DNA from: an uncultured delta proteobacterium
GTDB taxonomy: Bacteria; Desulfobacterota; Binatia; Binatales; Binataceae
Length of the DNA: 64,000 nucleotides
Direction: 5' to 3'
Assembly: GCA_963765675.1 (NCBI GenBank)
Contig: CAVXXK010000001.1
Location: 768,001-832,000, forward strand
In this document: piece by piece, positions 9,234 through 51,028 of the stretch
How positions within the stretch are numbered: position 1 is the first letter of the stretch
How the letters are laid out: each line of letters begins with the position of its first letter
Made by a program: the position numbers and the translations under genes
The notes under the pieces: generated by a model
The model's database searches: none
The model's input: only the letters and a program-made list of their open reading frames with translations
What the model was told of the DNA's origin: nothing

Positions 9234-10235
9234 TTAACGCGGAGGAGCGGCCGAATGCTGCCGCGCGCTGCGATCGGTCATCAGCGCGGCGGCGGTTTTG
9301 AACGCGGCTTCGGTCTCGCGTATCAGGTCGGCGAAAACCTCTGCCGCAGGCTTGATCTCTTTGATCAGTCCCGCGCCCTGGCCGGTCGGCATGAAGGTGC
9401 GCTCGGGATCGGCTTCGCCGCGGCGGGTTCCGGTGTAGTTCATCACGCCGTTGCGCTGCGAGATCATCGATTGTTCGGGAAATGGCTTGATCTTCGACGG
9501 ATCGCGCTCCCATTCGAGCGCGTACGGCGTGCGAATCACGCGGCACGGCTTGCCGGTGTAGCATCGGGTGCGGATCGTGGTGTCCTCGTGCGCGTTCAGA
9601 ATCGCTTGCCGATAGACGTCTGCGGCCTGCGCCTCGGGCGTCGCGATAAAGCGCGTGCCGATAACCACGCCCTGCGCGCCGAGCGTCAATGCGGCCGCGA
9701 TCTGGCGTCCGTCGGCAATTCCACCCGCCGCGAGCACCGGCAATTTGATCGCGTCGATCATTTGCGGCACCAGCGACAGCATCCCGATCTCTCCCGTATG
9801 TCCGCCCGCCTCGGTGCCCTGCGCGACGACTACATCGACGCCCGCGGCTTGCGCCTTCTCGCCGTGATGAACTTTGCCGCACATCGCGACGACTTTCATC
9901 CCATGCTCGTGCATCGTCTTGATAAACTCGGTCGGCACTGCGAGGCCGGCGACGAAGATGCGAACCTTCTCTTCGATCAGCACCGGCATATGCGGGCGCA
10001 TCATGTCGGGAATCGGCGCGAGCAGATCGACGGCGAAGGGCTTGTCGGTAAGCTCGCGGGTCTTGCGGATTTCGGCGCGCATCTCGTCGGGCGTAAGCGA
10101 CGCCGCTCCGATCACGCCCAGGCCTCCGGCGTTGGAGACCGCCGCGACCAGCTTATGCATCGCCACGCCGCCCATTCCGGCCAGCAGAATCGGGTACTTG
10201 ATTCCGAAATAATCGCAAATCGGGGTTTCTAGCAT
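9234..10235 (-). CDS. Nitronate monooxygenase / FabK-like FMN oxidoreductase
   Basis: PILLAGMGG, AVSNAGGLG, QGTEAGGHTG, AAGGIADG, GTRF; AGGAG upstream of ATG 10235. Confidence 0.9.
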   Translation of the reverse strand: MLETPICDYFGIKYPILLAGMGGVAMHKLVAAVSNAGGLGVIGAASLTPDEMRAEIRKTRELTDKPFAVDLLAPIPDMMRPHMPVLIEEKVRIFVAGLAVPTEFIKTMHEHGMKVVAMCGKVHHGEKAQAAGVDVVVAQGTEAGGHTGEIGMLSLVPQMIDAIKLPVLAAGGIADGRQIAAALTLGAQGVVIGTRFIATPEAQAADVYRQAILNAHEDTTIRTRCYTGKPCRVIRTPYALEWERDPSKIKPFPEQSMISQRNGVMNYTGTRRGEADPERTFMPTGQGAGLIKEIKPAAEVFADLIRETEAAFKTAAALMTDRSARQHSAAPPR

Positions 10236-10398: not shown

Positions 10399-10490
10399 GG
10401 AGAGGTGGCCGAGCCCGGTTTAAGGCGCACGCCTGGAACGCGTGTAAACTCGAAAGGGTTTCGGGGGTTCGAATCCCCCCCTCTCCGCCA
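10399..10490 (+). tRNA. tRNA-Ser(GGA)
   Basis: Acceptor GGAGAGG/CCTCTCC followed by GCCA; anticodon arm CACGC-CT-GGA-AC-GCGTG; long variable arm; T arm GGGGG-TTCGAAT-CCCCC; TGGCATAAT extended -10-like motif at 10377-10385. Confidence 0.97.
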
Positions 10491-10726: not shown

Positions 10727-12454
10727 TCAGGCGTGTCCGTGACGTAGCAGTTTGCCAGAGGTCGCTCCGGTACACTTGTCGTTGGCGAAGGTCTCGACGC
10801 CGTTGACGATAATCGAACGATAGCCCTTCGCATGCTGCACACGGCGCCATTCGCCGCCGGGCAGATCCTGGGCCACTTCACCAATCCAATCCGGCGCGAT
10901 GTCCAAGCCGTTCAGATCGTAGACCACGACATCGGCCCACGCGCCTTCGCGCAGCGTTCCTCGATCGCGGAAACCGGCCGCGTGTGCAGGCAGGGCGGAA
11001 AGGCGGTAGTGCGCCTCTTCGAGCGTCACCCGCTGCTCGTCCCGAACCATCCAGCGGAGAAAGTCGGTAGTGAAGGAGCCACCGGTAAAGAACTTCGTAT
11101 GCGCACCGCCGTCGGAAACGCCCGGGAAGGTGTACATCGATCCATTGATGATCTCAGCGTTGAACTCCGCGTTGAACTGCGGCTCGGCTTGGAGGAATTC
11201 AGCCTTTAAATCGGTTGCAAGCGACAGATCGATCATCACGTCAACCGGATGCCGCCCTTCTTCCTGGCCGATTTGCCCGAGCGATTTGCCGACGTACTTT
11301 TCGAGCTCAGGCTTGTTCTCGACCCATGAGACGATTAGCTTCACCAGCCGCCCGCCGATTCCTGGGGCGTTCTTGTCCAGCGCCGCCATCGAGCGTTCGC
11401 TCTTAACTGCCTCTCGGATCGCCGGATCCTTCATCTTCGCGATCTTCTCTTCCCTGGAACCGGTCGTCATGTCACGCCACGGAGGCGCCATGTCGTAGAG
11501 ATTCCAATGCTCGAGCGTAAACGCAAAGCCGCTGCGAACGGTGCCGCCCTGGCCGAAGATCGGCAGACCCTTGGCGCGCGCATTATGCAGCCAGTTAAGA
11601 CTCTTGCGATGGATCTCGGGGTTGCGGGTGCTTGCCGTGATCGCCTGGAACAAGATAGGACGTTGCGCCTCGCCGGCGAGTTTCTCGACAAACGCCAGAT
11701 CTTCCTTGATATGCCCGGTAGCCTGCGTGATCTCGATGAAACCCTCGTCGCGCGCGCGCAAAACGCCTGCGAGATTCAGGATGTCCTCGTCGCACATCGT
11801 GTCGGTCACCATCGGCGAGCCGTCGAAGTCGGCTTGCGCGGAATGCTTGCCGAGGCGCTGTATCGAGAAGCCGCAGAGGCCGGCATCCATGCCTTCATTG
11901 AGGAGCCGTCTCATCTCGGCCCGTTCAGCATCGGTTGCCGGGCGGGTTTTCGCGGCGTCCAGCCCCATGACGTAGGTCATTAACGATGCGGTCGGCATGT
12001 ACTGAATGCAATTGACGCCCTTTGGCGCGCGATCGAGCGAATCGAGGTACTGGGGAATGGTTTCCCAATCCCAGCTCATGCCTGCTTTCATCGATTCGTA
12101 AGGAATCGCCTCGGTGCGCGTCATTGTGAGCATCGAACGATCGCGGAAGTCGGGCTTAACCGGAGCGAAGCCAAAACCGCAGTTGCCGAGCACCACTGAG
12201 GTCACGCCGTGCCAACCGGAAATAGTGCACCAGGGATCCCACCTGATCTGCGCGTCATAGTGGGTGTGCAGGTCGACGAATCCGGGAGCGACGATCAGAC
12301 CATCAGCGTCGATGACTTTCTTCGCAAAGCCGGGGGCGCGGCCGCCGATCTGGGCGATTCTGCCATCCTTGATCCAGATATCGCCGCGAAAACCTGGCAC
12401 GCGTGTTCCATCAACTATGGTGCCGCCTTTGATGTGTAGATCGAATTCCGCCAT
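10727..12454 (-). CDS. N-acyl-D-amino-acid deacylase family amidohydrolase
   Basis: PGFVDLHTHYDAQ, GNCGFGFAP, SDGGAH, DRGTLREG; GAGGAGG upstream of ATG 12454. Confidence 0.9.
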   Translation of the reverse strand: MAEFDLHIKGGTIVDGTRVPGFRGDIWIKDGRIAQIGGRAPGFAKKVIDADGLIVAPGFVDLHTHYDAQIRWDPWCTISGWHGVTSVVLGNCGFGFAPVKPDFRDRSMLTMTRTEAIPYESMKAGMSWDWETIPQYLDSLDRAPKGVNCIQYMPTASLMTYVMGLDAAKTRPATDAERAEMRRLLNEGMDAGLCGFSIQRLGKHSAQADFDGSPMVTDTMCDEDILNLAGVLRARDEGFIEITQATGHIKEDLAFVEKLAGEAQRPILFQAITASTRNPEIHRKSLNWLHNARAKGLPIFGQGGTVRSGFAFTLEHWNLYDMAPPWRDMTTGSREEKIAKMKDPAIREAVKSERSMAALDKNAPGIGGRLVKLIVSWVENKPELEKYVGKSLGQIGQEEGRHPVDVMIDLSLATDLKAEFLQAEPQFNAEFNAEIINGSMYTFPGVSDGGAHTKFFTGGSFTTDFLRWMVRDEQRVTLEEAHYRLSALPAHAAGFRDRGTLREGAWADVVVYDLNGLDIAPDWIGEVAQDLPGGEWRRVQHAKGYRSIIVNGVETFANDKCTGATSGKLLRHGHA

Positions 12455-25819: not shown

Positions 25820-28800
25820 TCAATTGAGAGTGGACAGCAGCGCCGTCGCTTGCTTGAAATCGGTGCTCTCGTGGCCCTCACTGACGGTCGCGATAACCGG
25901 GGCAAGGATCGCTTTCGCCTCTTCCCGCCGATCGTGAAAGTGGAGGAAGGCGGCGAGGCTGGTCGCGCTGCGCAACTCCCAACAGCGCGCTTGCTGGCGG
26001 CGAGCGATCTCGATCGCCTGCTGAAAGCTGCGTTCTGTCTCATGAGGGTCGCCGCGATGCATCACGATCAATTCGCCGCGCAGACGCCATATCTCGGCTT
26101 CGTGCATGCGCTGGCCGCTGCTCGAGATCACCTTGAAGGCCTCGGCAACAACCGCGAGTCCCTTTTCAGGCTCGCGCGATCCCAGGTATGCCTCGGCTAG
26201 CAGGCTCAGCGCGTAACAGTAGATCAACTCGCCACCGTTCTCGATCAGCGCCGTCATTGCCGCGCGCATCCGAATGATCCCGGCGGCGTAATTGCCTTCG
26301 CCGACCAACACCCGCCCGATAATCATCGAGGCCACCGCCGACCAGTATGGAAAGCCGCCCTCGCGCGCGATTTCGATGAGCGATTCCGCCCGCGGCCGAA
26401 TGGTCGTGTGGTCGCCGCGAAAGTGCGCCAGCGCGATTGCGTACATCAGGGCGAACGCGATGCTGTAAGGGCTGCCGAGGCGGTTGGCGAGTTCCAGCGC
26501 CTCTTCGCCTCGCGCATTCGCCTGATCGGCGTAGCCCAGCATCCACAGCGCCCACGAAATCTGGCATCGCGACGGGACCACCGCGGCCATCGGCATCGGC
26601 AGGTAGCGAGGAATATCACGATCGTAGATCGCGATCGCCTGGTCGAAATGCTCGCGCGCGCCGCCGAATTCGCCGCGCCACAAGCACGCCGAGCCGAGGT
26701 TGGTGTGCGCGGCGGCTTCGCCGATCTCGTCGTTCACCAGGCGCGAGAGCTTGAGGGTTTTCTCCGCCAAACTCATGGCATCGTGCAGGCGATTGCGCGC
26801 CAGGTTGAAGATGCACAGCCTGTACATGACGCCGAACATCTCCGGCCCCTCGCCGATACGCTGGCACAACGCCATCCCGCGATTGAGGCTTTCGGCCAGC
26901 GCGGGACTGGCAAAGCCCTGGGTGGTCGCCAGGAGCGGTGACTGAATTCCCAGCAGGTTGAGCTCTTCGCGATCGCGCTCGCGCGTGTCCGGCAGCGAAG
27001 CCAAAAGCGTAAGCGCCTGGTTGACGTAGCGGATCCCGTCGTCGTATGCGGAACGCGCACGGGCCTGTTCCGCCGCCAGCTTCAAATAGCCCACCGCTTT
27101 GGAGGCATTGCCGCTGGAAGCGTAATGATGCGCCAGTTCACCGAGGTGATCGTCGACTTGGCCGGCGAAAAGCTGCTCCATCGCCTCCGCCGTGGATTCA
27201 TGGATCTCGCGGCGCCGTTCGATCAATACGGAATTGTAGGCGACCTCCTGCGTAAGCGCATGCTTGAAGGTGTATTCGCTTTCCGGAAAGGCCGGCTTTT
27301 CATAGATGAACTCGGCAAGCTGGAGCCGGGCCAGTTCCGAAGTGAGTTCCTCTTCAGGGCGCGCGGTTACGCGGCGCGCCAGCGCCAATGGAAACTCCTT
27401 GCCAATTACCGCGAGGGTCTGCAGCAATTCCTTGCCCGCCGGAGCAAGCTGATCGATGCGCGCGGCCAGAATGCCCTGCACCGTCGGCGGAATGAGGATC
27501 GCACCGAGTGGTTTCGCCAGGGTCACGCCGCCATTGTCCGCCAGCACCCCTTGATCGAACAGCGCCTGGACCATTTCCTCCACGAAGAAAGGATTGCCGT
27601 CGGTCTTGGCGATGATCAACTCTTTGAGCTCGCGCAACTGAGGATCGTCGCCCACCAACCCGGAAAGCATCTCGGCGGCGCTCTCACGTCCGAGCGGGTC
27701 GAGCCGCAATTGCGTGTAGTAGGTCTTGCCGCCCCATTGATGTCCGTATTCGGGCCGGTAGTTGACCATCATCAGGATCCGCGCGGTACCGATGCTGTCG
27801 GCAAGGAGATCGAGCAGAGCCTGGGTCTCGGTATCGACCCAGTGCAGGTCTTCGAAAATGAGCAGCAGCGGCTGATTGAGGCTCTCGCGATGGACCACGC
27901 TTTTGATCGCTTCGCGTGTCCGGCGGCGCCTGATAGCAGCGTCCATTTCGCGCAGCGGACTGGTGGGATCTTCGACCCGCAGCAGCGCGAAGAGATAGGG
28001 CAAGCAGTCTTCGAGCGCACGGTCGAGTGCGAGCACTTTGCCGGTAACCTTTTCGCGCCGTGCGCGATCGTCGTCCTGATCGGCGATGCGAAAGTAGCTC
28101 TTGAGCAGCTCGATCACCGGCAGGTAGGGCGAGGCCCTTCCGTGCGAGACGGAAAAGGCCTCCATCACAAAGGAGTCGCCCTGTGACATCGACCTGAATT
28201 CATGGAAGAGGCGCGACTTGCCGACTCCCGCTTCGGCAACGGCGGCAACGATTTGGCCATGACCGGCGCGGGCCAGCCCGAGCGCGCGGCGGAGTTGATC
28301 GATTTCATTGTGGCGGCCCACGAATTTTGACAATCCCCGCTGAGCGGAAATCTGCAGCCGCGTGCGCAGAGCACCCAGCCCAATCACTTCATAGACGTTT
28401 ACCGGCTCGCTTACCCCCTTGACGCGCGTGGGGCCGAGTGGCTTGAACTCGAAATAACCTGCCGCCGATTTCTGCACCGTTTCCGTAACCGCGATCGAGC
28501 CTGTAGGCGCCAGCGTTTGCATCCGCGCGGCGAGGCTGGTCGAGTGGCCGATCGGCGTGTATTCGGTATGCTCATCATCGGTGCGAATCGAGCGCACCAC
28601 CACTTCGCCCATGTTGAGGCCGATGCGGATTTCCAGCGGCGGATTACCGGCCTCGCGCAGGCGCGACGAATACTTGCGCATCTCGCTTTGCAGTCTGAGC
28701 GCCGCATACAGGCCGCGATGGACGTGGTCCTCGCGCGCGATCGGAGCGCCGAACAGAGCGAAAATCCCGTCGCCGGTTGATTGGACAATGTAGCCGTCGT

Positions 28801-29182
28801 AGTGATGGACCGCGTCGATCATCAAGCGCAATGCGGGATCAACCAGTGCGCGTGCCACTTCGGGGTCGAGCTCCTCCATCAGATCCATCGACCCTTTGAT
28901 ATCGGCGAACAGCGCGGTGACGGTCTTGCGTTCGCCGTCGAGCGCATCCGTGATCGCCGGCTCGGGTGCGACGCGAACCTCAGGCTTCGGCGCTGCGTTC
29001 AGAGGGGCAGCCGATGCCGCCGCGGCGGGGCGCAGAGAATTTCCGCATTGCCCGCAGAACTTGAAAGACGCGGGATTATCGAAGGCACACTTCGGGCATC
29101 GATTGTCGAGCGGCGTGGCGCAGTTGCCGCAAAACTTCATACCTTGCGGATTTTCAGTTCCGCAGCTTGAACACTTTGGCAC
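25820..29182 (-). CDS. Second zinc ribbon + class III cyclase + AAA ATPase + TPR-like protein
   Basis: Four CxxC, LFADIKGS, TGDG, AEAGVGKS, LIFEDLHW, FKHALTQEVAY; GTG start. Confidence 0.92.
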   Translation of the reverse strand: MPKCSSCGTENPQGMKFCGNCATPLDNRCPKCAFDNPASFKFCGQCGNSLRPAAAASAAPLNAAPKPEVRVAPEPAITDALDGERKTVTALFADIKGSMDLMEELDPEVARALVDPALRLMIDAVHHYDGYIVQSTGDGIFALFGAPIAREDHVHRGLYAALRLQSEMRKYSSRLREAGNPPLEIRIGLNMGEVVVRSIRTDDEHTEYTPIGHSTSLAARMQTLAPTGSIAVTETVQKSAAGYFEFKPLGPTRVKGVSEPVNVYEVIGLGALRTRLQISAQRGLSKFVGRHNEIDQLRRALGLARAGHGQIVAAVAEAGVGKSRLFHEFRSMSQGDSFVMEAFSVSHGRASPYLPVIELLKSYFRIADQDDDRARREKVTGKVLALDRALEDCLPYLFALLRVEDPTSPLREMDAAIRRRRTREAIKSVVHRESLNQPLLLIFEDLHWVDTETQALLDLLADSIGTARILMMVNYRPEYGHQWGGKTYYTQLRLDPLGRESAAEMLSGLVGDDPQLRELKELIIAKTDGNPFFVEEMVQALFDQGVLADNGGVTLAKPLGAILIPPTVQGILAARIDQLAPAGKELLQTLAVIGKEFPLALARRVTARPEEELTSELARLQLAEFIYEKPAFPESEYTFKHALTQEVAYNSVLIERRREIHESTAEAMEQLFAGQVDDHLGELAHHYASSGNASKAVGYLKLAAEQARARSAYDDGIRYVNQALTLLASLPDTRERDREELNLLGIQSPLLATTQGFASPALAESLNRGMALCQRIGEGPEMFGVMYRLCIFNLARNRLHDAMSLAEKTLKLSRLVNDEIGEAAAHTNLGSACLWRGEFGGAREHFDQAIAIYDRDIPRYLPMPMAAVVPSRCQISWALWMLGYADQANARGEEALELANRLGSPYSIAFALMYAIALAHFRGDHTTIRPRAESLIEIAREGGFPYWSAVASMIIGRVLVGEGNYAAGIIRMRAAMTALIENGGELIYCYALSLLAEAYLGSREPEKGLAVVAEAFKVISSSGQRMHEAEIWRLRGELIVMHRGDPHETERSFQQAIEIARRQQARCWELRSATSLAAFLHFHDRREEAKAILAPVIATVSEGHESTDFKQATALLSTLN

Positions 29183-29429
29183 GCGATAAATCTAGCTCGA
29201 TCGGCCCTCCCGACCAATGATCTTCGACTTCTTTATTTTGGTTCGCATCAGACTGCGTCATCCGCCAGCAAGCCCTGATGCCCCCGATATTCTCCATTCG
29301 AATCGCCCTATATAGCGCCGATGTGACGCCGATTTGCTCTCATCTGCGGAACGATTGTTCTTGCGAGCGCCGCGTACGCGGGTGGGTGTACAATCTCATT
29401 TGACGCTGCCGCGTGGTTCATTTGACGCC

Positions 29430-30743
29430 GTGAAAGAATCATCAACCGCCGATCTCCCGCACGTTGTAATCCTGGGCGGTGGCTTTGGCGGGCTCACCGC
29501 CGCCCAAAAGTTGGCGAAAACGCCGGTCCGGATCACTCTTATCGACCGCCGCAACCATCATCTGTTCCAGCCGCTGCTCTACCAGGTAGCGACCGCGGCC
29601 CTTAATCCCAGCGACATCGCGTCGCCGATTCGGAGAATTCTGCGCCGGCAAAAGAACGTGAGCGTGATTCTGGGCGACGCGGTCGCGATCGACACCACGA
29701 AAAAGATCGTCCAGCTCGCCGACGGCGAAGTCGCGTACGACTTTCTGGTGCTCGCGGCCGGCGCTACGCATTCGTATTTCGGGCACGACGACTGGATCGA
29801 CGCTGCGCCGGGGCTCAAGACTCTCGAGGACGCGGTCGAAATCCGCCGTCGCGTGCTGGTCGCATACGAAGCGGCTGAACGCGAAATCGACCAGCGCAGG
29901 ATCACCGAATGGATGACCTTTGTGATCATCGGCGCGGGACCGACCGGAGTCGAGATGGCCGGGGCGCTGGCGGAAATCGCGCGCCGGGTATTGGAGCGCG
30001 ATTTTCGCCACATCCAGCCGGGTCGGGCTCGAATTGTCCTGATCGAGGCGGGACCACGAGCATTGCCCGCCATGTCACCCGATTCGTCGGCGAGCGCAAT
30101 CCGGCAACTGGAGCGAATCGGCGTCGAAGTAATCACCGGCTCCGCCGTGACCGCCATCGACGGCAACGGAGTCACGCACGCAGGAGGAAGAATCGACGCG
30201 CGCACGGTCATCTGGGCGGCCGGCGTCGCGGCTTCACCGCTCGGCAAAGCGCTCGGCGCGCCGGTGGACCGCGCCGGACGGGTGCTGGTGAATCAGGATC
30301 TTTCGGTGCCGGGCACGGATTCAGTTTTCGTCATTGGCGATCTCGCCGCGATCAAATCTGACGGCAAACCGGTTCCAGGAGTATCACCGGCCGCGATCCA
30401 GGAAGGACGCCATGTCGCCGCGAACATCGCGCGAATCGTGCGCGGCGAATCGCCCACCGCCTTCCGCTACCGCGACAAGGGCACGCTCGCCACGATCGGT
30501 CGTGCAGCGGCCGTCGCCGACCTGGGCCGGGTGCATCTGCACGGCCTTGTCGCATGGCTGACGTGGCTATTGGTTCACATCTTTTACCTGATCGGCTTTC
30601 GCAACCGATTCCTGGTGATCAGCGAATGGGCCTGGATGTATCTCTGGAACGATCGCGGCGCGCGCCTGATAACAGGCGACGTCGAGCCGCTGCTCGAGCG
30701 CGGCAAACGCCCCGACGATCGCGACCGGATGCTCTCACCTTAG
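29430..30743 (+). CDS. ndh: Type II NADH dehydrogenase-like FAD oxidoreductase
   Basis: GGGFGG, HLFQPLLYQVAT, GAGPTGVEMAG, WAAGV, FRYRDKGTLATIG; start uncertain (GTG 29430 chosen). Confidence 0.9.
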   Translation: MKESSTADLPHVVILGGGFGGLTAAQKLAKTPVRITLIDRRNHHLFQPLLYQVATAALNPSDIASPIRRILRRQKNVSVILGDAVAIDTTKKIVQLADGEVAYDFLVLAAGATHSYFGHDDWIDAAPGLKTLEDAVEIRRRVLVAYEAAEREIDQRRITEWMTFVIIGAGPTGVEMAGALAEIARRVLERDFRHIQPGRARIVLIEAGPRALPAMSPDSSASAIRQLERIGVEVITGSAVTAIDGNGVTHAGGRIDARTVIWAAGVAASPLGKALGAPVDRAGRVLVNQDLSVPGTDSVFVIGDLAAIKSDGKPVPGVSPAAIQEGRHVAANIARIVRGESPTAFRYRDKGTLATIGRAAAVADLGRVHLHGLVAWLTWLLVHIFYLIGFRNRFLVISEWAWMYLWNDRGARLITGDVEPLLERGKRPDDRDRMLSP

Positions 30744-30759: not shown

Positions 30760-30781
30760 ACTACGGTCAGGATTGCAGCGC
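30760..30781. repeat. Left copy of an imperfect 22-bp direct repeat (other copy 32715-32736)
   Basis: ACTACGGTCAGGATTGCAGCGC vs ACTACGGCCGGAATTGCAGCGC, 19/22 identical. Confidence 0.65.
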
Positions 30782-31043
30782 ACTGAAACGCGTGTGAACT
30801 GGCTTGCGCTTCGTCGTCAGCATGGTTCGCCTCGTTTCATCTATAGCTGTGGTCGTCCAGAAAGCCGCTCGCCTTGCCGGGGCTGCTCTCCGAGAGAAAC
30901 AAACACTCCTTTTGTCTCCGTGTGGCAATCGTCGGTACAGAATGTGGCTATCGATGCTGTTTCGATGGATAGCGCCTAGATCATTGATATTGTATGTATT
31001 TTGGCGGAAGTACTAACTGAACGACATTTTAGGGGGGATTTTG

Positions 31044-32639
31044 ATGGGATCACTCTATCTGAACGGATTAACTGCTGATAAGCGTAAGCATCTGGAGCAA
31101 CGACTTTGGGATCAGCAGAATGGAAAATGCTTCATCTCGGGGAAACCGATGGACTTGGAGATTGATGAGATTGATATAGATCACATCATTCCAACGCGCG
31201 ATAATGGTAAAGACGACCCCACCAATTTCGCACTGACGCTGGCCAGCTACAATCGCTCAAAGCAGGCTGCCGATTTGCGGGTTGCGCGAGTTCTTGCCCG
31301 CTTCGACCAAATCAAGGCGACTGCTGATAGCGATGACCGCGGAGCCAACCTCAATGACGTTTTGGAAGCCTACGGCGGAGCATCAGGTTCATTACGCGGC
31401 AAGATCGACGGCGTGCATATTACCTATATTGTCGAGGGCGACCGTAAGGTCACTGTGCCAGTGCATACTGATAAGCTGTCGGGGATTCGTTATTTCTTTG
31501 CCGTTCTTCCCATAGCGGCACTCTATCATGACGAAAAAATCAATCCGCGTCCTATAGGCTCCAATCTGCGGAGTCTCGTGGAGGAGTTCTTCAAGGGGCG
31601 TCCGCAATTGCATGTCGCGCTAGGCTGGATCAGCTCGGCAGCGCTCCCCGAGGCCCGGATCAATATCTTCGACGGGCAGCATAAGGCGGCCGCGCAAATC
31701 CTGCTTGGAGCGTTGACGCTTCCAGTCCGCATCTTCATTGATCCCGATTTCGAAATACTCCGAACTACCAACACTAATGCTGGCACGACGCTCAGACAGG
31801 TCGCTTTTGACAAGTCAGTGCAGCGGCGATTGGGCTCGGCGATGCTGCTCGATCGCATAGCGCGCTACCGGAAAGACAAAACTTTGCCGGGAGACGATGA
31901 AAACTTCTCAGAAAAGGCGCTGGTGGAGCATTTCCGGGGCGACCAGCGTGCGGTTGCTCGCTATGTACTCGATGGCGTTCGCAACGCCATTACCTACTCA
32001 CCCGACAACAAGCTGCGCGATTATATCGATAACGCTGGGAAGGCCCACGAAAAGCCCTTTTCGTATAGCACCATCGAAAAAACATTCTACTCCAAGTTTA
32101 TTGGTTCCAGCATGTTAGAGACGCCATGGAATTATCGCAGCGAACAGGGAGAAAATCCCAGGACTATAGAAGTAGCCCAGGTCGTGCGGCTAATGAGTCT
32201 CATTGCCGACAAAATCTGCGTGGGCAAATACGATGAGGAGATTGGCACATCGAAGCTTGAGAACAAAGTACAGAAGGGCGAAGATATACCGGAAAAGCAC
32301 CTACGCGCGTTCCGTATGGCAAAAGAGGAAATTCTCTATTGTTGGATCAACTATATTGGAAAAATTATAGAGAACCATTTTCTGATGTTGGGCCGCGTTG
32401 TTGATAATCAAAGGCTGTTTCAATATCCGTTCCCGGAGCAACTCTGGACTAATATTGGTAACTTCATCGATAATCTGGCCCGCTTGCCAATGTGGATAAA
32501 TCGAGATGCCTCGCTAACGATCTTCGGCGGTAAGCAAACCTATAGCTTCTGGCAGACAATCTTTGAATCGGGCGTCAGTCCAACGGGCCATAAAGCAATG
32601 CCAACGGGCATCAACATAATGGAAATGATCAAACCATGA
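31044..32639 (+). CDS. HNH endonuclease fused to a DGQHK (ParB/DGQHR-like) domain; candidate defence nuclease
   Basis: QNGKCFIS...DIDHIIP...GKDDPTNFALT...YNRSK at the N-terminus; INPR and IFDGQHKAAAQ centrally; AT-rich relative to neighbours; AGGGGG RBS. Confidence 0.8.
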   Translation: MGSLYLNGLTADKRKHLEQRLWDQQNGKCFISGKPMDLEIDEIDIDHIIPTRDNGKDDPTNFALTLASYNRSKQAADLRVARVLARFDQIKATADSDDRGANLNDVLEAYGGASGSLRGKIDGVHITYIVEGDRKVTVPVHTDKLSGIRYFFAVLPIAALYHDEKINPRPIGSNLRSLVEEFFKGRPQLHVALGWISSAALPEARINIFDGQHKAAAQILLGALTLPVRIFIDPDFEILRTTNTNAGTTLRQVAFDKSVQRRLGSAMLLDRIARYRKDKTLPGDDENFSEKALVEHFRGDQRAVARYVLDGVRNAITYSPDNKLRDYIDNAGKAHEKPFSYSTIEKTFYSKFIGSSMLETPWNYRSEQGENPRTIEVAQVVRLMSLIADKICVGKYDEEIGTSKLENKVQKGEDIPEKHLRAFRMAKEEILYCWINYIGKIIENHFLMLGRVVDNQRLFQYPFPEQLWTNIGNFIDNLARLPMWINRDASLTIFGGKQTYSFWQTIFESGVSPTGHKAMPTGINIMEMIKP

Positions 32640-32714: not shown

Positions 32715-32736
32715 ACTACGGCCGGAATTGCAGCGC
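32715..32736. repeat. Right copy of the 22-bp direct repeat, covering the last codons and stop of the carboxylase
   Basis: Reverse strand reads GCG CTG CAA TTC CGG CCG TAG (ALQFRP*). Confidence 0.65.
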
Positions 32737-35700
32737 TCTTGGAGTGAGCATCGATGGTTGGGAGATGATGCGATAGGCGTTCTCCGCCCATTCGCAGATC
32801 CATCGGCGGGTGTCGCGCGGGTCGATCATCTCTTCCATCTGGAACCGGTTTAGCGGGCCTATCGGACCACGCGCGCTTTCGATGCGCGCATTGATCTCCG
32901 CGCGCAAGGCGGCGGGGTCGGCGGCCTCGGCAAGCTGACGTTTGTAGGCGGCCTCGATGCCGCCCTCGGGCGGGATGCCGCCCACATCCGCAGCCGGCCA
33001 TACGACGCGAGCGCTGGCGCCGCTGCGCGGCGTTGCGTAGTTGTTGCCGGCCACTCCAAAGCTGCGGCGCATGATGACGGTGAAGATCGGGATTGCGACC
33101 TGCGCGAACGCGATCATCCATTCGCCGCCCTTGCGGATCGTGCCGGCGATTTCGTGCTCGAGGCCCACCGCGAAGCCCGGATTATCGATCAGGTTCAGCA
33201 CCGGCAGGTGGAACAAGTCGCATAGGTCGAGGTGGCGCTTGAGTTTGTCGCAGCCGTCGGCCGTCAGCGCGCCGCCATTGACGTGCCGGCAGTCGGATGC
33301 GATCACACCCATCGGATAGCCGCCAAAGCGAACGAAGCCAACGATCTGGTCGGTGCCCCAGAGCGGCCCGATCTCGAAGAACGAGCCCCGATCCGCCATC
33401 AACCGGATGGCCCGGCGCATATCGAACGTCATGATGCGCTTGCGGGGAATGATCGTGAACAGCTCTTCCTCCCGGCGATCGGCAGGATCGGCGGGGTCTG
33501 GCGCCAGGACCGGCGGTGCTTCGTAGACGCTCGAAGGAAGGTAGGAGAGGAACCGCTTCGTCATCGAAGTGGCCTCTTCCTCCGACTCCGCCAGATTGTC
33601 GACCGAGCCGTTCCGGCAATGAATCTGCCAGCCGCCTAATTCCTCCTTCGTGATGTCGTAACCCATCGCGTGGCTCACCACCGGCGGCCCCGCGACGAAG
33701 AGCTGCGCGATGTCGCGCACCATCACCGAGAAATGGCCGAGCACCGCCTTCGCGGCGCCGATACCCACCACGCTGCCGAGCAGCAGATTGACCACCGGCA
33801 CCTCGCTGAGTTGTTTTACGTACATGCTGCTGCCGAGATGGCCCGGCAGGAACGAGCCGCCTTCGCCGGATACGCGAGGACGTCCCGCCACTATCGCGCC
33901 GGAGCTCTCTCTCGCGCTGCTCTCCCCCGCCTTCTGCTGCTTCGGCACCATCGCGGCGATACTGCCGCCGCCCGAGGAGCCATCCAACAACCGTATCGAT
34001 GGGCAGCGAAAGTCGATCGACAGTCGATCGAGATGAGCGCTCTTCCCGCCGATCGCGCCGTCGGCATGCCCGCCGCGCGAGGTGAAATCGTCGGCACATA
34101 CCACGGCCGTTCGGCCGTCGATTTTGCCCCATCCTCCAACGTGGTTGGCGGGTGTGAAGCCCGAAACTCGTCCCTCATCGTCGTAGTCGGCGAAGCCCGC
34201 GAGGCTGCCGACCTCGCGAAAGCTGCCGGCGTCGAGCAGCAGGTCGATTCGTTCGCGGCAGGTCAGCTTGCCGCGATCACGCTGGCGGACTACTCCCGGA
34301 TCCTTCGAGCCGGGCGCGAAGCGGCGATGCGCGATCGCCAGCAACGCCTGCACATCGGCAAGCATCGGCGCCCAGGTGTCGTCGCCATAGCGGCGCGGCG
34401 AGGTTGCGTCACTGCCGCGCTCAGTTGGGGCGATAGTGGCGACAATCTGGCCCGCCGCGACGGCGGCGCCGACCTCCGCGGGACTGATACCTGTCACGAC
34501 GCCGGCGCAGGGCGCCGTGACCGCGGTTTCCATCTTCATGGCGCTGATGATCATGAGCGTCGCGCCCGCCCCGACCGTCGCGCCGCTCTCGACGGCAAGC
34601 TCGATTATGGAACCAGCCATAGGGCTCTCGACGCCCTCCTGACCGCTCGGAACCGGCAGGCCCGGCTGTGTGCCTGTCGGGATGACCGCGGCTTGGCCGC
34701 GATGGAGCGCCGTAGCCTGTTGTTCGAGCAGCACCAGAGGACGTGAGGCGGATGCCTGTGCGCCGATCGGGGTAGAGAGCTCAGGATACTCGGAGAACAG
34801 GGTGGTCCGAGCGTCGCCCGTCCGCAGCGCTGGATGCGAGAGCACCGTACGTAGCTGCTTAAGATTCGTCGTCAGACCGGCGACATGGAACTCATCGAGG
34901 GCGCGCACGGTGTGGTCAAGCGCCGAAGCGAACGAGTTCGTCGAGTTTGACTGGCAGATGAGCTTTGCGAACATCGGATCGAATTGCGGCGGCGGCGCAT
35001 AGCCCACATAGCCGCAGGAATCGACCCGCACTCCCGGGCCCGTCGGCTCTTTGTACGCGGTCAGCACGCCGGTGCCGCTCGCGACGATACGCGCCTCTAC
35101 GGCAAAGCCGAGGGGAGCTTTGATCGCGGCTTGATCCGCGAGGCCCAGCGCTTTCAGAGTCTCCCCGGCCGCGATACGGAACTGAGCCTCGACCAGATCA
35201 ATGTTCGTGACCTGCTCGGTCACGGTGTGCTCGACCTGGATGCGGGGATTGCACTCGATGAAAAAGTGTTCGCCACGCTCGGGGTTGACCAAAAACTCGA
35301 CCGTGCCCGCGTTCACATAACCGGCCGCACTGGCCAGACGGATTGCATCCTCAAGGATGCGTCGTCGAAGGCCGGCCTCCAAGCCAGGCGCCGGCGCGAT
35401 CTCGATGACCTTCTGGTTTCGGAGCTGCACAGAGCAATCGCGCTCGTAGAGGTGGACGATGTCGCCGTGGCTATCGGCCAGGACCTGGACCTCGATGTGA
35501 CGTGGCCGCGCGATCAGCTTCTCGACAAAGAGGGAGCCGTCGCCGAACGCCGCCATCGCTTCGCTCTGGCATCGGGTGAAGGCCGCCGACATCTCATCGG
35601 CGCCCGCAACTGCGCGCATGCCGCGGCCGCCGCCGCCCGCCACCGCTTTCAGCATGACCGGATAGCCAATCGTCTCGGCGACGGCCCTGGCGTCCTGAGC

Positions 35701-36183
35701 GCTCGCCAGGGACTGCGGGCTGCCCGGGATGATCGGGATGCGCAGTGAGCGGGCGAGATCGCGCGCTTTGGTCTTGTCGCCAAACAGCGCGAGCGTCTCG
35801 GGGCTCGGCCCGATGAAGGCGATGCCCTCTTCGCGGCATCGCTTTGCGAAGCCGCTATTCTCGGACAGGAACCCGTAACCAGGATGCACGCAATCGCAGC
35901 GGCTGGCCTTGGCGGCTTCGATCAACCCCTCGATGTCGAGATAGGCGCGCACGGGATCGCTCGACGACGCCCGCGACGTGCCGAGTGCGCGCGATTCAGT
36001 TGTGACGCGGGTATGAAGCGATAGCTTGTCCGCCGGAGCGTACACGCTGACTGACTCGACGCCGAGCGCCGACGCGGCGCGTGCGACACGGATAGCAATT
36101 TCACCTCGGTTGGCAATCAGTACTCGCTTGAACAAAGGTCCACTCCGGGAAGCTGAATAAGTCACAGACCCATCTTGTAGCAC
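32716..36183 (-). CDS. Single-chain biotin-dependent acyl-CoA carboxylase (BC-BCCP-CT fusion)
   Basis: ANRGEIA, HPGYGFLSEN, GGGGRGMR, ERDCSVQ, NPRIQVEH; biotin site SAMKM; CT motifs ADDFTSRGG, DNPGF, IDPRDTR. Confidence 0.92.
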   Translation of the reverse strand: MLQDGSVTYSASRSGPLFKRVLIANRGEIAIRVARAASALGVESVSVYAPADKLSLHTRVTTESRALGTSRASSSDPVRAYLDIEGLIEAAKASRCDCVHPGYGFLSENSGFAKRCREEGIAFIGPSPETLALFGDKTKARDLARSLRIPIIPGSPQSLASAQDARAVAETIGYPVMLKAVAGGGGRGMRAVAGADEMSAAFTRCQSEAMAAFGDGSLFVEKLIARPRHIEVQVLADSHGDIVHLYERDCSVQLRNQKVIEIAPAPGLEAGLRRRILEDAIRLASAAGYVNAGTVEFLVNPERGEHFFIECNPRIQVEHTVTEQVTNIDLVEAQFRIAAGETLKALGLADQAAIKAPLGFAVEARIVASGTGVLTAYKEPTGPGVRVDSCGYVGYAPPPQFDPMFAKLICQSNSTNSFASALDHTVRALDEFHVAGLTTNLKQLRTVLSHPALRTGDARTTLFSEYPELSTPIGAQASASRPLVLLEQQATALHRGQAAVIPTGTQPGLPVPSGQEGVESPMAGSIIELAVESGATVGAGATLMIISAMKMETAVTAPCAGVVTGISPAEVGAAVAAGQIVATIAPTERGSDATSPRRYGDDTWAPMLADVQALLAIAHRRFAPGSKDPGVVRQRDRGKLTCRERIDLLLDAGSFREVGSLAGFADYDDEGRVSGFTPANHVGGWGKIDGRTAVVCADDFTSRGGHADGAIGGKSAHLDRLSIDFRCPSIRLLDGSSGGGSIAAMVPKQQKAGESSARESSGAIVAGRPRVSGEGGSFLPGHLGSSMYVKQLSEVPVVNLLLGSVVGIGAAKAVLGHFSVMVRDIAQLFVAGPPVVSHAMGYDITKEELGGWQIHCRNGSVDNLAESEEEATSMTKRFLSYLPSSVYEAPPVLAPDPADPADRREEELFTIIPRKRIMTFDMRRAIRLMADRGSFFEIGPLWGTDQIVGFVRFGGYPMGVIASDCRHVNGGALTADGCDKLKRHLDLCDLFHLPVLNLIDNPGFAVGLEHEIAGTIRKGGEWMIAFAQVAIPIFTVIMRRSFGVAGNNYATPRSGASARVVWPAADVGGIPPEGGIEAAYKRQLAEAADPAALRAEINARIESARGPIGPLNRFQMEEMIDPRDTRRWICEWAENAYRIISQPSMLTPRALQFRP

Positions 36184-48310: not shown

Positions 48311-49138
48311 TTGGCTAAAAGCAGTTCAGGGTCGAAGTCCGAGAGGTCGAGTGGCCAGCAGGAGGAAGCGACGACCGCCGACTCTGAGCAGACTGCTCGT
48401 AGCGGCGGCGCCGACAAACTCATCGAAGAGCTGCGGGAGGCGATCAAGGCCCGCGACGATTTCCTCGCTATCGCGACTCACGAACTCCGCAATCCACTGA
48501 CGCCAATCCTGCTCTGCCTGGAGCTCATTCGAGCTGCGGAAAAATCGAACGATCGCGCCAAGCTGCGCCATGAGATCGATCGCCTGGAGCGTCAGATTAA
48601 GCATTTTCTCGCCCGGATCAATGTCTTTCTCGAAGTCGCGCAAATTCGCTCGGGGAAGTCCAATCTCGATCTCTGCAAATTGAACTTGTCGCAGTTGATC
48701 TCGGGGATTGTGAACGACTACATGCCGCTGGTGGTGCGCAGCGGATCGGAGCTGACGATCAAGATCCAGAACGATGTTATGGCGTTCGTCGATCGGATGG
48801 CCGTATCGGAAATCGTAGAGAATTTACTTTCCAATGCGATCAAATATGGCCGGAGCAAACCGATCGAGATCGCTTTGACGGCTACAGCCGAAACCGCTCG
48901 GATAACCGTTCGCGACAACGGCATTGGCATTGACGAAAAAGATAAAGCACGCATATTTGAACGGTTTGAACGAGTGGCGAGCGGTCGGTTTCAATCCGGC
49001 TTTGGGATCGGACTGTGGCTCGCGCGGAATTTTGCAGAGTTGATGGGCGGCTCCATAACTGTATTCGGAAAATCGGGCGTCGGTTCACTTTTTACCGTGA
49101 CCTTGCCGACGGAAGAGGGGAGAATCCATGAGCAGTGA
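48311..49138 (+). CDS. Soluble histidine kinase without a sensor domain
   Basis: ATHELRNPL H box, NLLSNAIKY, DNGIG, IFERF, GFGIGL; start uncertain (TTG). Confidence 0.9.
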   Translation: MAKSSSGSKSERSSGQQEEATTADSEQTARSGGADKLIEELREAIKARDDFLAIATHELRNPLTPILLCLELIRAAEKSNDRAKLRHEIDRLERQIKHFLARINVFLEVAQIRSGKSNLDLCKLNLSQLISGIVNDYMPLVVRSGSELTIKIQNDVMAFVDRMAVSEIVENLLSNAIKYGRSKPIEIALTATAETARITVRDNGIGIDEKDKARIFERFERVASGRFQSGFGIGLWLARNFAELMGGSITVFGKSGVGSLFTVTLPTEEGRIHEQ

Positions 49139-50588
49139 CGTTCGACCGCTTACGCGCGTCCGCTCCGGCGTTAAAGGACTCGACGACATTCTCCGTGACG
49201 GCTTCTTCGGAGGTGGTCTGTATATCGTCGAGGGTCCGCCCGGGGTCGGCAAAACAATCCTGGGGAATCAAATTTGCTTCAATCAAGCAGCCGCCGGAAG
49301 CAGGGTTCTATACGTCACGCTGATCGCCGAAACGGTGGGTCGGATGCTGCTCAACATTAGAGGCCTGAGATTCTTTGACGAGGCCGTGGTCGGCAACGGC
49401 ATCTTCTATGTCAGCGGCTACAATGCGTTGAAGAAAGACGGCCTGTCGGGTTTGCTTCATTTACTGCGCAGAGAGGTCGCCGGCCGCAAAGCCACGACGC
49501 TGATCGTCGACGGCTTTGCTTCAACCTCCGATCACTCGCAATCGCGCGAGGAGTTGAAGCTGTTCGTGCAGCAGTTACAAACCCAGGCCGACGCCTCAGA
49601 CTGCACTGTCTTTTTGCTGACGAACCCAAGCGAGCAGAAGCCCTCGTCCGAAGAAACCATGGTTGACGGAATTATCAATCTCGGCACGACGGTCCACGAA
49701 TGGCGCTCGGCCCGCGAACTGTGCGTCCGAAAATTTCGCGGTAGTGCTTATCTTCAGGGTGTCCACTCGTATGACATCACCGAAGAAGGAATCACCGTCT
49801 ATCCGCGGCTCGAAACGCTGATCAGCTCGGGCACTGAGCTCAACGGGGAAACCAAGCGGGTTTTGTCCGGAAACCCGCGCCTGGATGCGATGCTCGGAGG
49901 CGGATTCCCCGCGCGCTCGTCGACTATGGTCATCGGGCCGTCCGGAACCGGGAAGAGCACTCTGGGTATGCAATTCCTGGCGCAATCAAACGCCGCAGAA
50001 CCGGGCCTGTTGTTCGGGTTTTACGAAAGACCCGAGCGAATCCGCGCCAAGGCAAAGACCATCTGTCCGCCGTTGCTGCAGCAACTCGATGCCGGCCACG
50101 TTCAGATTCTATGGCAACCGCCGACCGACCAGTTTCTCGACGAGCTCGCCGACCGGATGCTGCGCGATATCAAAAAGAGAAAGGTGAAGCGTCTGATGAT
50201 CGACGGTCTCGGCGGCTTCAAAAGAGCGCTCCGTTCGAGACCGATCGAGCCGTTTTTTTCCGCCCTGGTTCATGAATTGCGTGCGCAGGGAGTCACCTCG
50301 ATCTGTACGGCCGAAGTTATGGAGATCGTGGGACCGACTATCACCGTGCCGCTGCAGGGGTTGTCCGACGTGACCGACAATCACATCCTGCTGCGCTTTG
50401 TCGAATCAGGCGCGAGCCTGTACCGGGTGCTTTCGATACTCAAGGTGCGCGACAGCGCATTCGACTCTGATTTGCGGGAACTCCATTTCGCGGCTAGCGG
50501 ATTTGAACTCGCTGAAAACTCCGCGAGCGTCAAATCGATCCTGCCGCGGGTTGTTACGAAACCCCCAACCGAGGTGACTCAAGACTAA
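49128..50588 (+). CDS. KaiC-like double-domain RecA-fold ATPase
   Basis: SGVKGLDDIL...GPPGVGKT...RKFRG and SGNPRLDAML...GPSGTGKS...LKVR; overlaps the kinase stop. Confidence 0.9.
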   Translation: MSSDVRPLTRVRSGVKGLDDILRDGFFGGGLYIVEGPPGVGKTILGNQICFNQAAAGSRVLYVTLIAETVGRMLLNIRGLRFFDEAVVGNGIFYVSGYNALKKDGLSGLLHLLRREVAGRKATTLIVDGFASTSDHSQSREELKLFVQQLQTQADASDCTVFLLTNPSEQKPSSEETMVDGIINLGTTVHEWRSARELCVRKFRGSAYLQGVHSYDITEEGITVYPRLETLISSGTELNGETKRVLSGNPRLDAMLGGGFPARSSTMVIGPSGTGKSTLGMQFLAQSNAAEPGLLFGFYERPERIRAKAKTICPPLLQQLDAGHVQILWQPPTDQFLDELADRMLRDIKKRKVKRLMIDGLGGFKRALRSRPIEPFFSALVHELRAQGVTSICTAEVMEIVGPTITVPLQGLSDVTDNHILLRFVESGASLYRVLSILKVRDSAFDSDLRELHFAASGFELAENSASVKSILPRVVTKPPTEVTQD

Positions 50589-50605
50589 GAAATGAGTGGC
50601 GGCGG

Positions 50606-51028
50606 ATGGAGAAGAGCCAAAAGACCAGCCCGGCTGGCAAGACCATACTGATCGCTGATGATGAATTCGGTGTCCTCGAGGTCCTCGAATTCATCCTCAG
50701 CGATGCCGGCTACACCGTCGTGTCCGCAGTCAACGGACAGGACGCGCTGGTTCGTCTTGAAGAAACCACGCCGGACTTGGTCATTGTCGATTTCATGATG
50801 CCGATACTCGACGGCAACGGGGTCATCAAGGCGATTCGCTCGGACGACAAGCTGCGTGACATCCCTATAATTCTGGCGAGCGCGCTGCCCGAACAAACGA
50901 TCAGACGGCGCTGCGACGGCTACGATACGTTTTTGCGCAAACCCTACCGGACCGAGCAGCTGATGGAAGAAATCTCAAAATTGATTGCTCAATCCGATGG
51001 GCGTCCACCAAAACCCGGTCCGCGTTAA
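50606..51028 (+). CDS. Single-domain response regulator (REC)
   Basis: ADDE, VDFMMP, ASA, LRKP. Confidence 0.92.
   Translation: MEKSQKTSPAGKTILIADDEFGVLEVLEFILSDAGYTVVSAVNGQDALVRLEETTPDLVIVDFMMPILDGNGVIKAIRSDDKLRDIPIILASALPEQTIRRRCDGYDTFLRKPYRTEQLMEEISKLIAQSDGRPPKPGPR

Follow-up and report, generated by a model that had tools for sequence, protein, structure and literature searches.

What role might be played by a lone, AT-rich nuclease gene that lies among GC-rich metabolic genes? The question is raised by a 64,000-nucleotide (nt) stretch of DNA (here termed the window) from an uncultured delta proteobacterium of the family Binataceae (assembly GCA_963765675.1, contig CAVXXK010000001.1, positions 768,001 to 832,000 of the forward strand), which carries on its plus strand an intact open reading frame (ORF) of 531 codons (31041/31044 to 32639, with an ATG at 31044 and a stop codon at 32637 to 32639). 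A preliminary description had offered its 531-amino-acid (aa) product as a candidate single-gene antiphage nuclease. We found that the protein combines an N-terminal HNH nuclease domain with a core of the ParB/sulfiredoxin (Srx) fold and a C-terminal all-α domain of no recognized family. From this architecture, together with the foreign composition, scattered distribution, and partial defense-gene association of the family, we favor, at a probability of about one in two, the reading that it is a self-contained, horizontally acquired endonuclease that would act against foreign DNA, presumably that of phages and mobile elements, as a one-gene restriction-like system.

Domain architecture and conservation

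The gene and the regions of its product are as follows.

31031..31038, plus strand: Shine-Dalgarno-like AGGGGGGA, G-rich, 5 nt 5' of the ATG (read from the sequence)
31044..32639, plus strand: coding sequence of the HNH/ParB-fold/α-domain protein (full-length homologs at 84 to 88% identity; pN 0.10 to 0.19 versus pS 0.79 to 0.85 with five relatives)
31044..31274, plus strand: HNH (ββα-metal) nuclease domain, aa 1 to 77 (local Pfam, NCBIfam, and PADLOC matches, family profile, Foldseek, and conservation)
31275..31487, plus strand: helical linker (aa 78 to 115) and three-stranded β unit (aa 116 to 148), the least conserved parts of the protein (AlphaFold2 secondary structure)
31488..31805, plus strand: ParB/Srx-fold core, aa 149 to 254, the most conserved domain (Foldseek matches in the PDB and BFVD, Atlas leads, and TIGR03187)
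31806..32636, plus strand: all-α domain of no recognized family, aa 255 to 531 (separate model; no PDB, Pfam, or NCBIfam match)

The ATG at 31044 is taken as the right start because the alignments with homologs begin at residue 1; relative to it, the public gene call P0002 (496 aa), which begins at Met36, starts 35 codons too late and lacks the HNH domain's first zinc-ligand/helix part. At 50.4% G+C against 59.6% for the window, the gene is the lowest-GC 1.6-kb stretch of the 64 kb (minimum at 31101; mean, 0.597; standard deviation, 0.029). The AT-richness reported in the preliminary description, 23 of 60 G+C positions at 32341 to 32400, was exact on recount, and the motifs that it listed lie where it had placed them (CFIS at aa 29 to 32, DIDH at aa 44 to 47, LASYN at aa 66 to 70, INPR at aa 166 to 169, and FDGQHK at aa 209 to 214). 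A scan for promoters and terminators returned nothing above shuffled sequences (one promoter-like site against 2.5 expected and no terminators).

In what follows, conservation is counted over 137 full-length relatives, and model tests refer to 25 diverse relatives. The N-terminal domain had been described as an HNH domain with its catalytic residues kept, and these residues (D46, H47, N61, and N70) are indeed present as DHNN in 133 of the 137 relatives. The AlphaFold2 secondary structure displays the expected ββα core, with strands at 43 to 47 and 62 to 66 followed by a helix at 67 to 71. For the window protein, the Pfam models HNH_4 (PF13395; 20.9 bits against a threshold of 22) and HNH (PF01844; 19.7 against 21.4) match aa 37 to 74 just below threshold, and PF01844 matches 23 of the 25 diverse relatives at an E value of ≤1 (best, 1.3e-11). 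Local matches within aa 11 to 92 are to Cas9, Cas9d, and IscB in NCBIfam and to Cas9 and PtuB in PADLOC, with the Cas9 models of both collections covering aa 11 to 74 at E values of 1e-8 to 1e-10. Searched against PDB sequences, a profile of the whole family, made from the 25 diverse relatives, retrieved the HNH domain of a group II intron maturase (E = 1e-10) and those of Cas9 (E = 8e-8), with no matches other than HNH domains, and Foldseek aligned the structural model to Cas9 HNH domains with a probability of 1.0. The HNH domains of Cas9, IscB, group II intron maturases, and Septu PtuB are thus the best matches in both sequence and fold for aa 11 to 85. The likeness is local to the domain, however, with no RuvC domain, RNA guide, reverse transcriptase, or PtuA ATPase partner here. 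A Septu-like or Cas9-like identity was rejected, since the matches are confined to aa 11 to 92 and no PtuA or Cas partner lies nearby.

The four positions corresponding to zinc ligands are occupied in the window protein by C29, S32, L66, and Y69. The preliminary description had regarded the ligands as eroded; three of the four are lost, but the pattern is a conserved subfamily trait rather than decay, with CSLY at positions 29/32/66/69 in 57 of the 137 relatives and CCHC in another 57. The zinc-less site is a stable subfamily state under selection. This CxxS variant resembles the HNH domain of Cas9, and the alignment of the Neisseria Cas9 HNH displays the same C..YSG pattern. A CCHC zinc site occurs in many HNH proteins but not in Cas9, whose HNH is active without one.

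The AlphaFold2 model of the protein, built from 25 sequences, has a predicted local distance difference test (pLDDT) score of 89 and a predicted template modeling (pTM) score of 0.56, and because of the latter, the relative positions of the domains are uncertain. Within the model, aa 149 to 254 align by Foldseek to the N-terminal domain of pNOB8 ParB, Noc, ParB, PadC, and sulfiredoxin (5k5a, 7ol9, 6ryk, 7bm8, 1xw4, and 3cyi) with probabilities of 0.99 to 1.0 at modest E values (1e-3 to 0.1), and the template modeling (TM) score normalized to human sulfiredoxin is 0.61 to 0.63 over 85 to 106 columns. Searches of viral structures in BFVD agree, with matches to ParB/Srx proteins and to "DNA-sulfur modification-associated" (DndB-type) proteins, and the leads from a language-model Atlas are to GmrSD_N, ParB_N, and DUF6551 clusters, in one of which GmrSD_N is carried by 51% of the members. 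The predicted structure, with its TM score of about 0.62 to sulfiredoxin, bears out the ParB/Srx fold that had been proposed for the central domain. By sequence, TIGR03187 (DGQHR) weakly matches 2 of the 25 members (best E = 0.0038) and does not match the window protein.

Three motifs characterize this core, namely, H162-D163...I-N-P-R169, F-D-G-Q-H-K214, and L239xxxN243, of which the second is placed by AlphaFold2 at a strand-to-helix junction, with GxxK at the N terminus of the helix. P168-R169 is invariant (137/137); DGQHK is found in 136 relatives, with NAQHR in the remaining one; and L239 and N243 are kept in 129 and 135, respectively. Domains of the DGQHR/DUF262 type are characterized, in the cited portions of PMC4619093 and PMC12065111, by a motif trio consisting of a QR pair, DGQHR (DGxQR), and FxxxN. 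The order and spacing of PR, DGQHK, and LxxxN resemble those of this trio, from which each motif differs by one residue.

The C-terminal half had been left without a family assignment, and we were likewise unable to link it to any known fold. Modeled separately, aa 255 to 531 form a confidently predicted all-α domain (pLDDT, 83; pTM, 0.83) with nearly invariant E290, R373, E376, R424, and W484. Foldseek searches with this domain alone found no match in the PDB (best E value, 1.9; probability, 0.08), and none of the Pfam and NCBIfam models matches it in the window protein or the 25 diverse members. A helical DNA-binding region, "ParBDB," follows the ParB domain in NsnA, DndB, GmrSD, and SspE according to the cited portion of PMC12065111. 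By its position, the C-terminal domain could correspond to ParBDB, although similarity between the two was not detected in the Foldseek search against the PDB. A homodimer prediction with two copies of aa 100 to 531 scored 0.23 against a mark of 0.42, a result that counts neither way.

Relationship to known ParB-like systems and a possible mechanism

A combination of these domain types is known from GmrSD, BrxU, SspE, DndI, and HEC-06, type IV restriction and phosphorothioate-sensing effectors in which a ParB-like NTPase (DUF262) responds to DNA and nucleotide and governs the HNH nuclease (DUF1524) in the same chain (cited portions of PMC11662687, 10.1101/2024.01.29.577857, and PMC12065111); in DndI, BrxU, and HEC-06, the DGQQR motif and the HNH domain are both reported to be required for defense (PMC11662687 and bioRxiv 10.1101/2024.01.29.577857, in the parts cited). 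The family shares with this group the presence in one chain of a ParB/Srx fold, with a D-G-Q-x-basic loop at a strand-helix junction, and a His-Me-finger nuclease, as well as a helical region beside the ParB domain and genes that are often solitary or embedded in restriction-modification (RM)-like systems. The differences are equally specific. As had been recognized in the preliminary description with respect to GmrSD and SspE, the domain order is reversed, with the HNH domain first in this family and after the ParB-like domain in those proteins. The HNH domain is of the Cas9/IscB/intron type (PF13395/PF01844) and not of the DUF1524 type (GmrSD_C, PF07510), which matches 1 of the 25 members with an E value of 0.1; the DUF262/GmrSD_N model (PF03235) matches none of the 25 at E ≤ 1; and the loop reads DGQHK instead of DGQQR. 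The PDB entries of SspE, BrxU, and DndI are 7DRS, 7P9K, and 9JFL, respectively. The family's helical domain has no PDB match, although structures of these three proteins are cited as solved (portions of PMC11662687 and bioRxiv 10.1101/2024.01.29.577857). The DUF262 and DUF1524 models fail, and the motif, domain order, and HNH branch all differ; the protein would resemble a GmrSD-type enzyme in its action without belonging to that family.

In its motifs, the core is closest to the DGQHR domains prototyped by DndB (TIGR03187/PF14072), with which it shares DGQHK in place of DGQHR, an invariant upstream arginine (PR versus QR), and a downstream xxxN, in addition to the weak TIGR03187 matches and the BFVD matches noted above. 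It nevertheless fails the models of these domains in all but 2 of the 25 members; the window protein has no significant match to TIGR03187 or PF14072, and it differs further in its lysine in place of the arginine, in its fused HNH domain, and in the lack of recognized dnd-type genes nearby. Two other comparisons are pertinent. NsnA of the Menshen system, which is described in the cited portion of PMC12065111, likewise has a ParB-fold domain (ParB-DUF262) followed by an all-α domain proposed to bind DNA (ParBDB), sometimes with additional N-terminal domains. In contrast to NsnA, the family has the effector in cis, and neither NsnB ATPase nor NsnC effector neighbors were seen. Fusions of the ParB-CTPase fold to HNH domains are listed as novel and uncharacterized in the part of a 2025 survey cited here (PMC12704722). 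The present family, being a bacterial combination of the same two folds, is comparable to them; its lack of a match to any Pfam ParB model may have caused that survey to miss it.

On the basis of these parallels, we propose that the ParB/Srx-fold module, together with the all-α domain, would bind DNA and a nucleoside triphosphate (NTP), the latter via the FDGQHK loop, and serve as a sensor or switch whose state would license DNA nicking or cutting by the N-terminal HNH domain of the Cas9/IscB type. The family might then represent the logic of GmrSD, BrxU, SspE, and DndI, a ParB-like NTPase joined to an HNH nuclease, independently assembled from other domain families in the opposite order. The ParB fold is able to bind CTP, ATP, or GTP, and its specificity is reported to be unpredictable from sequence or AlphaFold3 (PMC12704722, cited part). 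Because most copies of the gene, including that in the window, lack a linked methylase, the host is probably spared by a need for some feature of the foreign DNA, e.g., a modification as in type IV-like restriction, or for an infection-dependent nucleotide signal.

A more far-reaching version of this proposal, which we regard as possible but doubtful, is that these proteins constitute a widespread and unnamed family of one-gene immune nucleases independent of GmrSD, in which a phosphate loop with a lysine (GxxK) and a helical DNA reader of new fold, possibly forming an NTP-closed clamp like that of ParB, would license a Cas9-type HNH domain, with a target or signal unlike those of known type IV systems. 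Were this the case, the family could supply a compact NTP-controlled HNH module.

Distribution, neighbors, and insertion traces

A word-indexed search recovered 2,585 cluster representatives (90% identity) at E ≤ 1e-3; among the 120 matches listed, most are 530 to 545 aa in length, some are shorter, and they are named "HNH endonuclease" at most. An exhaustive search gave 683 representatives at 50% identity, many of them fragments, with 97 at E ≤ 1e-30; the weakest of the 683 are probably HNH-only proteins. A genome scan yielded 15 loci, from Alphaproteobacteria (53 to 84% identity) and from a Spirochaetia bacterium and metagenome-assembled genomes (MAGs) of Saccharibacteria and Phascolarctobacterium (all three at 43 to 45%). 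Fourteen loci, counting the window, have a whole gene, and in every one its G+C content is 5 to 22 percentage points lower than that of the rest of the locus. Comparison of the window gene with five relatives gave low nonsynonymous divergence (pN) against saturated synonymous divergence (pS), at the values listed above, indicating purifying selection. Two of the 15 loci carry pseudogenes (L006, with one stop, and L015, with frameshifts), and another (L013) retains a C-terminal fragment only. No longer fused forms of aa 100 to 531 were found among 5,794 candidates, which is weak evidence.

The neighborhood survey of the 15 loci took in as many as four ORFs (≥90 aa) to either side of the gene, 108 in all, and these were scanned with Pfam; PADLOC was also run on the 57 that showed no evident housekeeping family. 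Restriction or defense-type genes adjoin the gene in five loci (L002, L003, L005, L013, and L014). The most elaborate of these is L002 (5951 to 15002), where a type IIG/DrmMI-like methylase (1342 aa), the family gene, and a protein with HKD and SNF2 helicase modules (HKD+SNF2; 1133 aa) follow one another on a single strand, 24 and 7 nt apart, and beyond them lies a convergent pair coding for a UvrD-like helicase and a PD-(D/E)XK nuclease. This is possibly a DISARM/Hma-like system with an embedded gene. GmrSD-like defense genes are described in the cited portion of bioRxiv 10.1101/2024.01.29.577857 as lying within Hma, BREX, DISARM, and type I RM systems, and the embedded genes as frequently defense genes and usually autonomous; the layout of L002 matches that pattern. 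In L013 (9887 to 18543), the C-terminal remnant of the gene is followed in turn by DUF932, HKD+SNF2, and MkoA-like helicase genes. In L014 (66 to 2985), from the Phascolarctobacterium MAG (a firmicute), a PLD-helicase matching the PADLOC PLD_Helicase model with an E value of 1e-153 is found on the same strand 92 nt upstream. The HKD+SNF2 protein of L002 shares 60% identity with its counterpart in L013 but only 24%, over 289 residues, with the helicase of L014. Beside the gene in L003 are an integrase and a type I RM system; in L005, an antitoxin-like gene lies upstream of it, and 60 nt downstream comes a type IIG enzyme. Outside this set, the copy in L001 lies in a tRNA-associated island because it is flanked by a VapE-type gene upstream and, just downstream, by two tRNA-like repeats (11707 to 11754 and 11844 to 11891).

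These neighbors raise the alternative that the family protein is a component of a multigene system consisting of an HKD(PLD)-SNF2 helicase-nuclease and a type IIG/DrmMI-like methylase, in the manner of DISARM or Hma, and that the copy in the window, as an orphan, does little or nothing by itself. Such a system would account for the co-oriented and tightly spaced trio of L002, for the company of the remnant in L013, with its closely related HKD+SNF2 protein, and for the PLD-helicase of L014. The arrangement is nevertheless confined to 3 of the 15 loci, two of which are of common ancestry, and the helicase of the third is just 24% identical to that of L002. Moreover, of the 12 intact copies that are solitary or otherwise placed, five were compared with the window gene, and these show strong purifying selection; the lack of fused forms among longer proteins, weak evidence as it is, points the same way; and embedded genes are usually autonomous in the portion of bioRxiv 10.1101/2024.01.29.577857 cited above. 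We therefore consider this alternative unlikely.

The edges of the low-GC insert in the window bear on how it arrived, and they are marked by an imperfect direct repeat.

30760..30784, no strand assigned: direct-repeat copy A (25 nt), a decayed carboxylase 3' end at the left edge of the low-GC insert (21 of 25 positions identical to copy B; in-frame stop on the reverse complement)
32715..32739, no strand assigned: direct-repeat copy B, the functional carboxylase 3' end (last seven codons plus stop, minus strand) at the right edge (the ORF ends at 32716)

The local alignment of the two copies has a z score of 4.2 (100 shuffles). In L010, a repeat of about 65 nt (9615 to 9679 and 11627 to 11688; z = 21.9) duplicates the 3' end of an amidase gene, and in both loci, the repeats bracket a single-gene insert of about 2 kb. 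Such a pattern suggests an element that inserts at the 3' ends of genes and either brings a copy of the gene end with it or displaces one. Nothing of the kind was seen in the other 12 of the 14 loci, and flanking direct repeats were dropped as a family-wide feature; we treat them as traces of individual insertion events. No conserved element ends were recovered, as similarity among six close relatives stops exactly at the start and stop codons, leaving no shared cassette boundary or attachment site in the flanks.

A second alternative is that the gene is selfish and similar to homing endonucleases, its HNH domain cutting a chromosomal site and promoting its own insertion or retention without benefit to the host. 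A single-gene, AT-rich insert that occurs in unrelated chromosomal contexts with no integrase would fit this explanation, as would the duplicated host-gene 3' ends that form the repeats in the window and L010 and an HNH domain of the group II intron maturase type. We judge it improbable nonetheless, as the repeats occur in just 2 of the 14 loci, the unconserved flanks argue against a target site or element end held in common, no copy was found in the phage collection, and a strongly constrained 450-aa region with a ParB fold and helical domain is atypical of homing endonucleases.

Returning to a defensive endonuclease, several observations weigh against it. Nine of the 15 loci, like the window, have only metabolic, housekeeping, or unassigned neighbors. 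The preliminary description had proposed the fraction of homologs in defense islands as a check; this spoke in its favor insofar as 5 of the 15 loci lie beside RM or defense-helicase genes, but so few loci do not permit an enrichment statistic, and in the absence of a background rate, the association is suggestive and not statistical. Searches with P0001 and the divergent P0160 (tblastn) found no match in 72,556 plasmids and 50,697 phage genomes, which is unusual for a mobile defense gene. No PADLOC-DB 2.0.0 model matches the window protein or the 25 relatives past the HNH domain, where the local matches are to the Cas9, PtuB, and HNH_I-A models; a match to a named system would have refuted the preliminary description, and this collection gave none. 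The Pfam ParB, DndB (PF14072), and GmrSD_N models match none of the 25 members, and solved structures of the GmrSD type are absent among the 37 Foldseek matches listed. The Box II arginine of GxxR is replaced by a lysine (G211-Q-H-K214) in 136 of the 137 members, and an alanine in place of this arginine left none of the ParB-fold proteins tested in the survey able to bind NTP (PMC12704722, cited portion). The literature on DGQHK, on DGQHR or DndB-like proteins with HNH, and on ParB-like proteins with HNH and antiphage activity yielded no description of the family, nor was experimental work on any of its members found. Finally, the catalytic histidine is lost in 3 of the 25 diverse members (P0134, P0154, and P0255; alignment positions 46 to 47) that keep DGQHK. 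Nuclease action may therefore not be the core function in every lineage, and the ParB-fold part may act alone in some.

This loss, along with the better conservation of the ParB core than of the HNH domain and the description of DndB, the closest motif relative, as a regulator, would also suit a housekeeping or regulatory DNA-binding protein, e.g., a DndB-like NTP-dependent repressor or a repair nickase. Such a role is in our estimate very improbable. The spread of the family is patchy and crosses phyla, its composition is foreign in all 14 loci with a whole gene, and it includes pseudogenes, while DHNN is kept in 133 of the 137 members. There is also no conserved neighbor to regulate, and no dnd- or ssp-type Pfam family was recognized among the 108 neighboring ORFs of the 15 loci or the neighbors in the window.

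If the reading as a defense nuclease holds, thousands of genes labeled "HNH endonuclease" (2,585 clusters, as counted above) would gain a role, and a second, independent pairing of a ParB-fold nucleotide switch with an HNH domain would speak for this pairing as a design of general use in immune nucleases. The confidently folded C-terminal domain, which makes up about half of the protein and lacks a solved relative, is a candidate for a new DNA-recognition module, and the lysine in place of an otherwise essential Box II arginine offers a direct test case for nucleotide binding by the ParB fold.

Surroundings in the window

The metabolic setting that had been claimed for the gene was confirmed. 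On its left lies a gene for a type II NADH dehydrogenase (NDH-2; 29334 to 30743, plus strand), and on its right is a gene (32716 to 36183, minus strand) coding for a biotin carboxylase, a biotinyl carrier domain (BCCP), and a carboxyltransferase fused into a single polypeptide of 1,155 aa. A Pfam scan of 46 ORFs of the window found no integrase, transposase, phage, methylase, or defense genes. The earlier remark that the gene has no methyltransferase or partner is accurate for the window, with none within about 10 kb, but does not extend to the family, as some relatives adjoin methylases and an HKD-SNF2 helicase. A PADLOC scan of the 15 ORFs between 19.6 and 45.9 kb gave generic domain matches only; these were to an RtcR-type AAA domain (in a sigma-54 activator) and a PycC-type cyclase (in a cyclase-AAA-TPR protein). 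Two paralogs of about 1,120 to 1,136 aa (151 to 3558 and 25820 to 29182, both on the minus strand) share one layout of a double zinc ribbon, an adenylate/guanylate cyclase, an AAA_16 ATPase, and TPR repeats; generic PycC matches in PADLOC come from the cyclase part. An Rfam scan of the window detected one tRNA only (10399 to 10487), which is unrelated to the gene.

Two further features lie in the right part of the window. Tandem full-length KdpA genes (56678 to 58486 and 58907 to 60733, both on the plus strand) precede KdpB-like and KdpC-like ORFs; the KdpB region seems to be split into 60787 to 62358 and 62300 to 62947, which may reflect a frameshift. Upstream of these, at 48311 to 51025 on the plus strand, a histidine kinase, a KaiC-like double-domain ATPase, and a response regulator occur in series.

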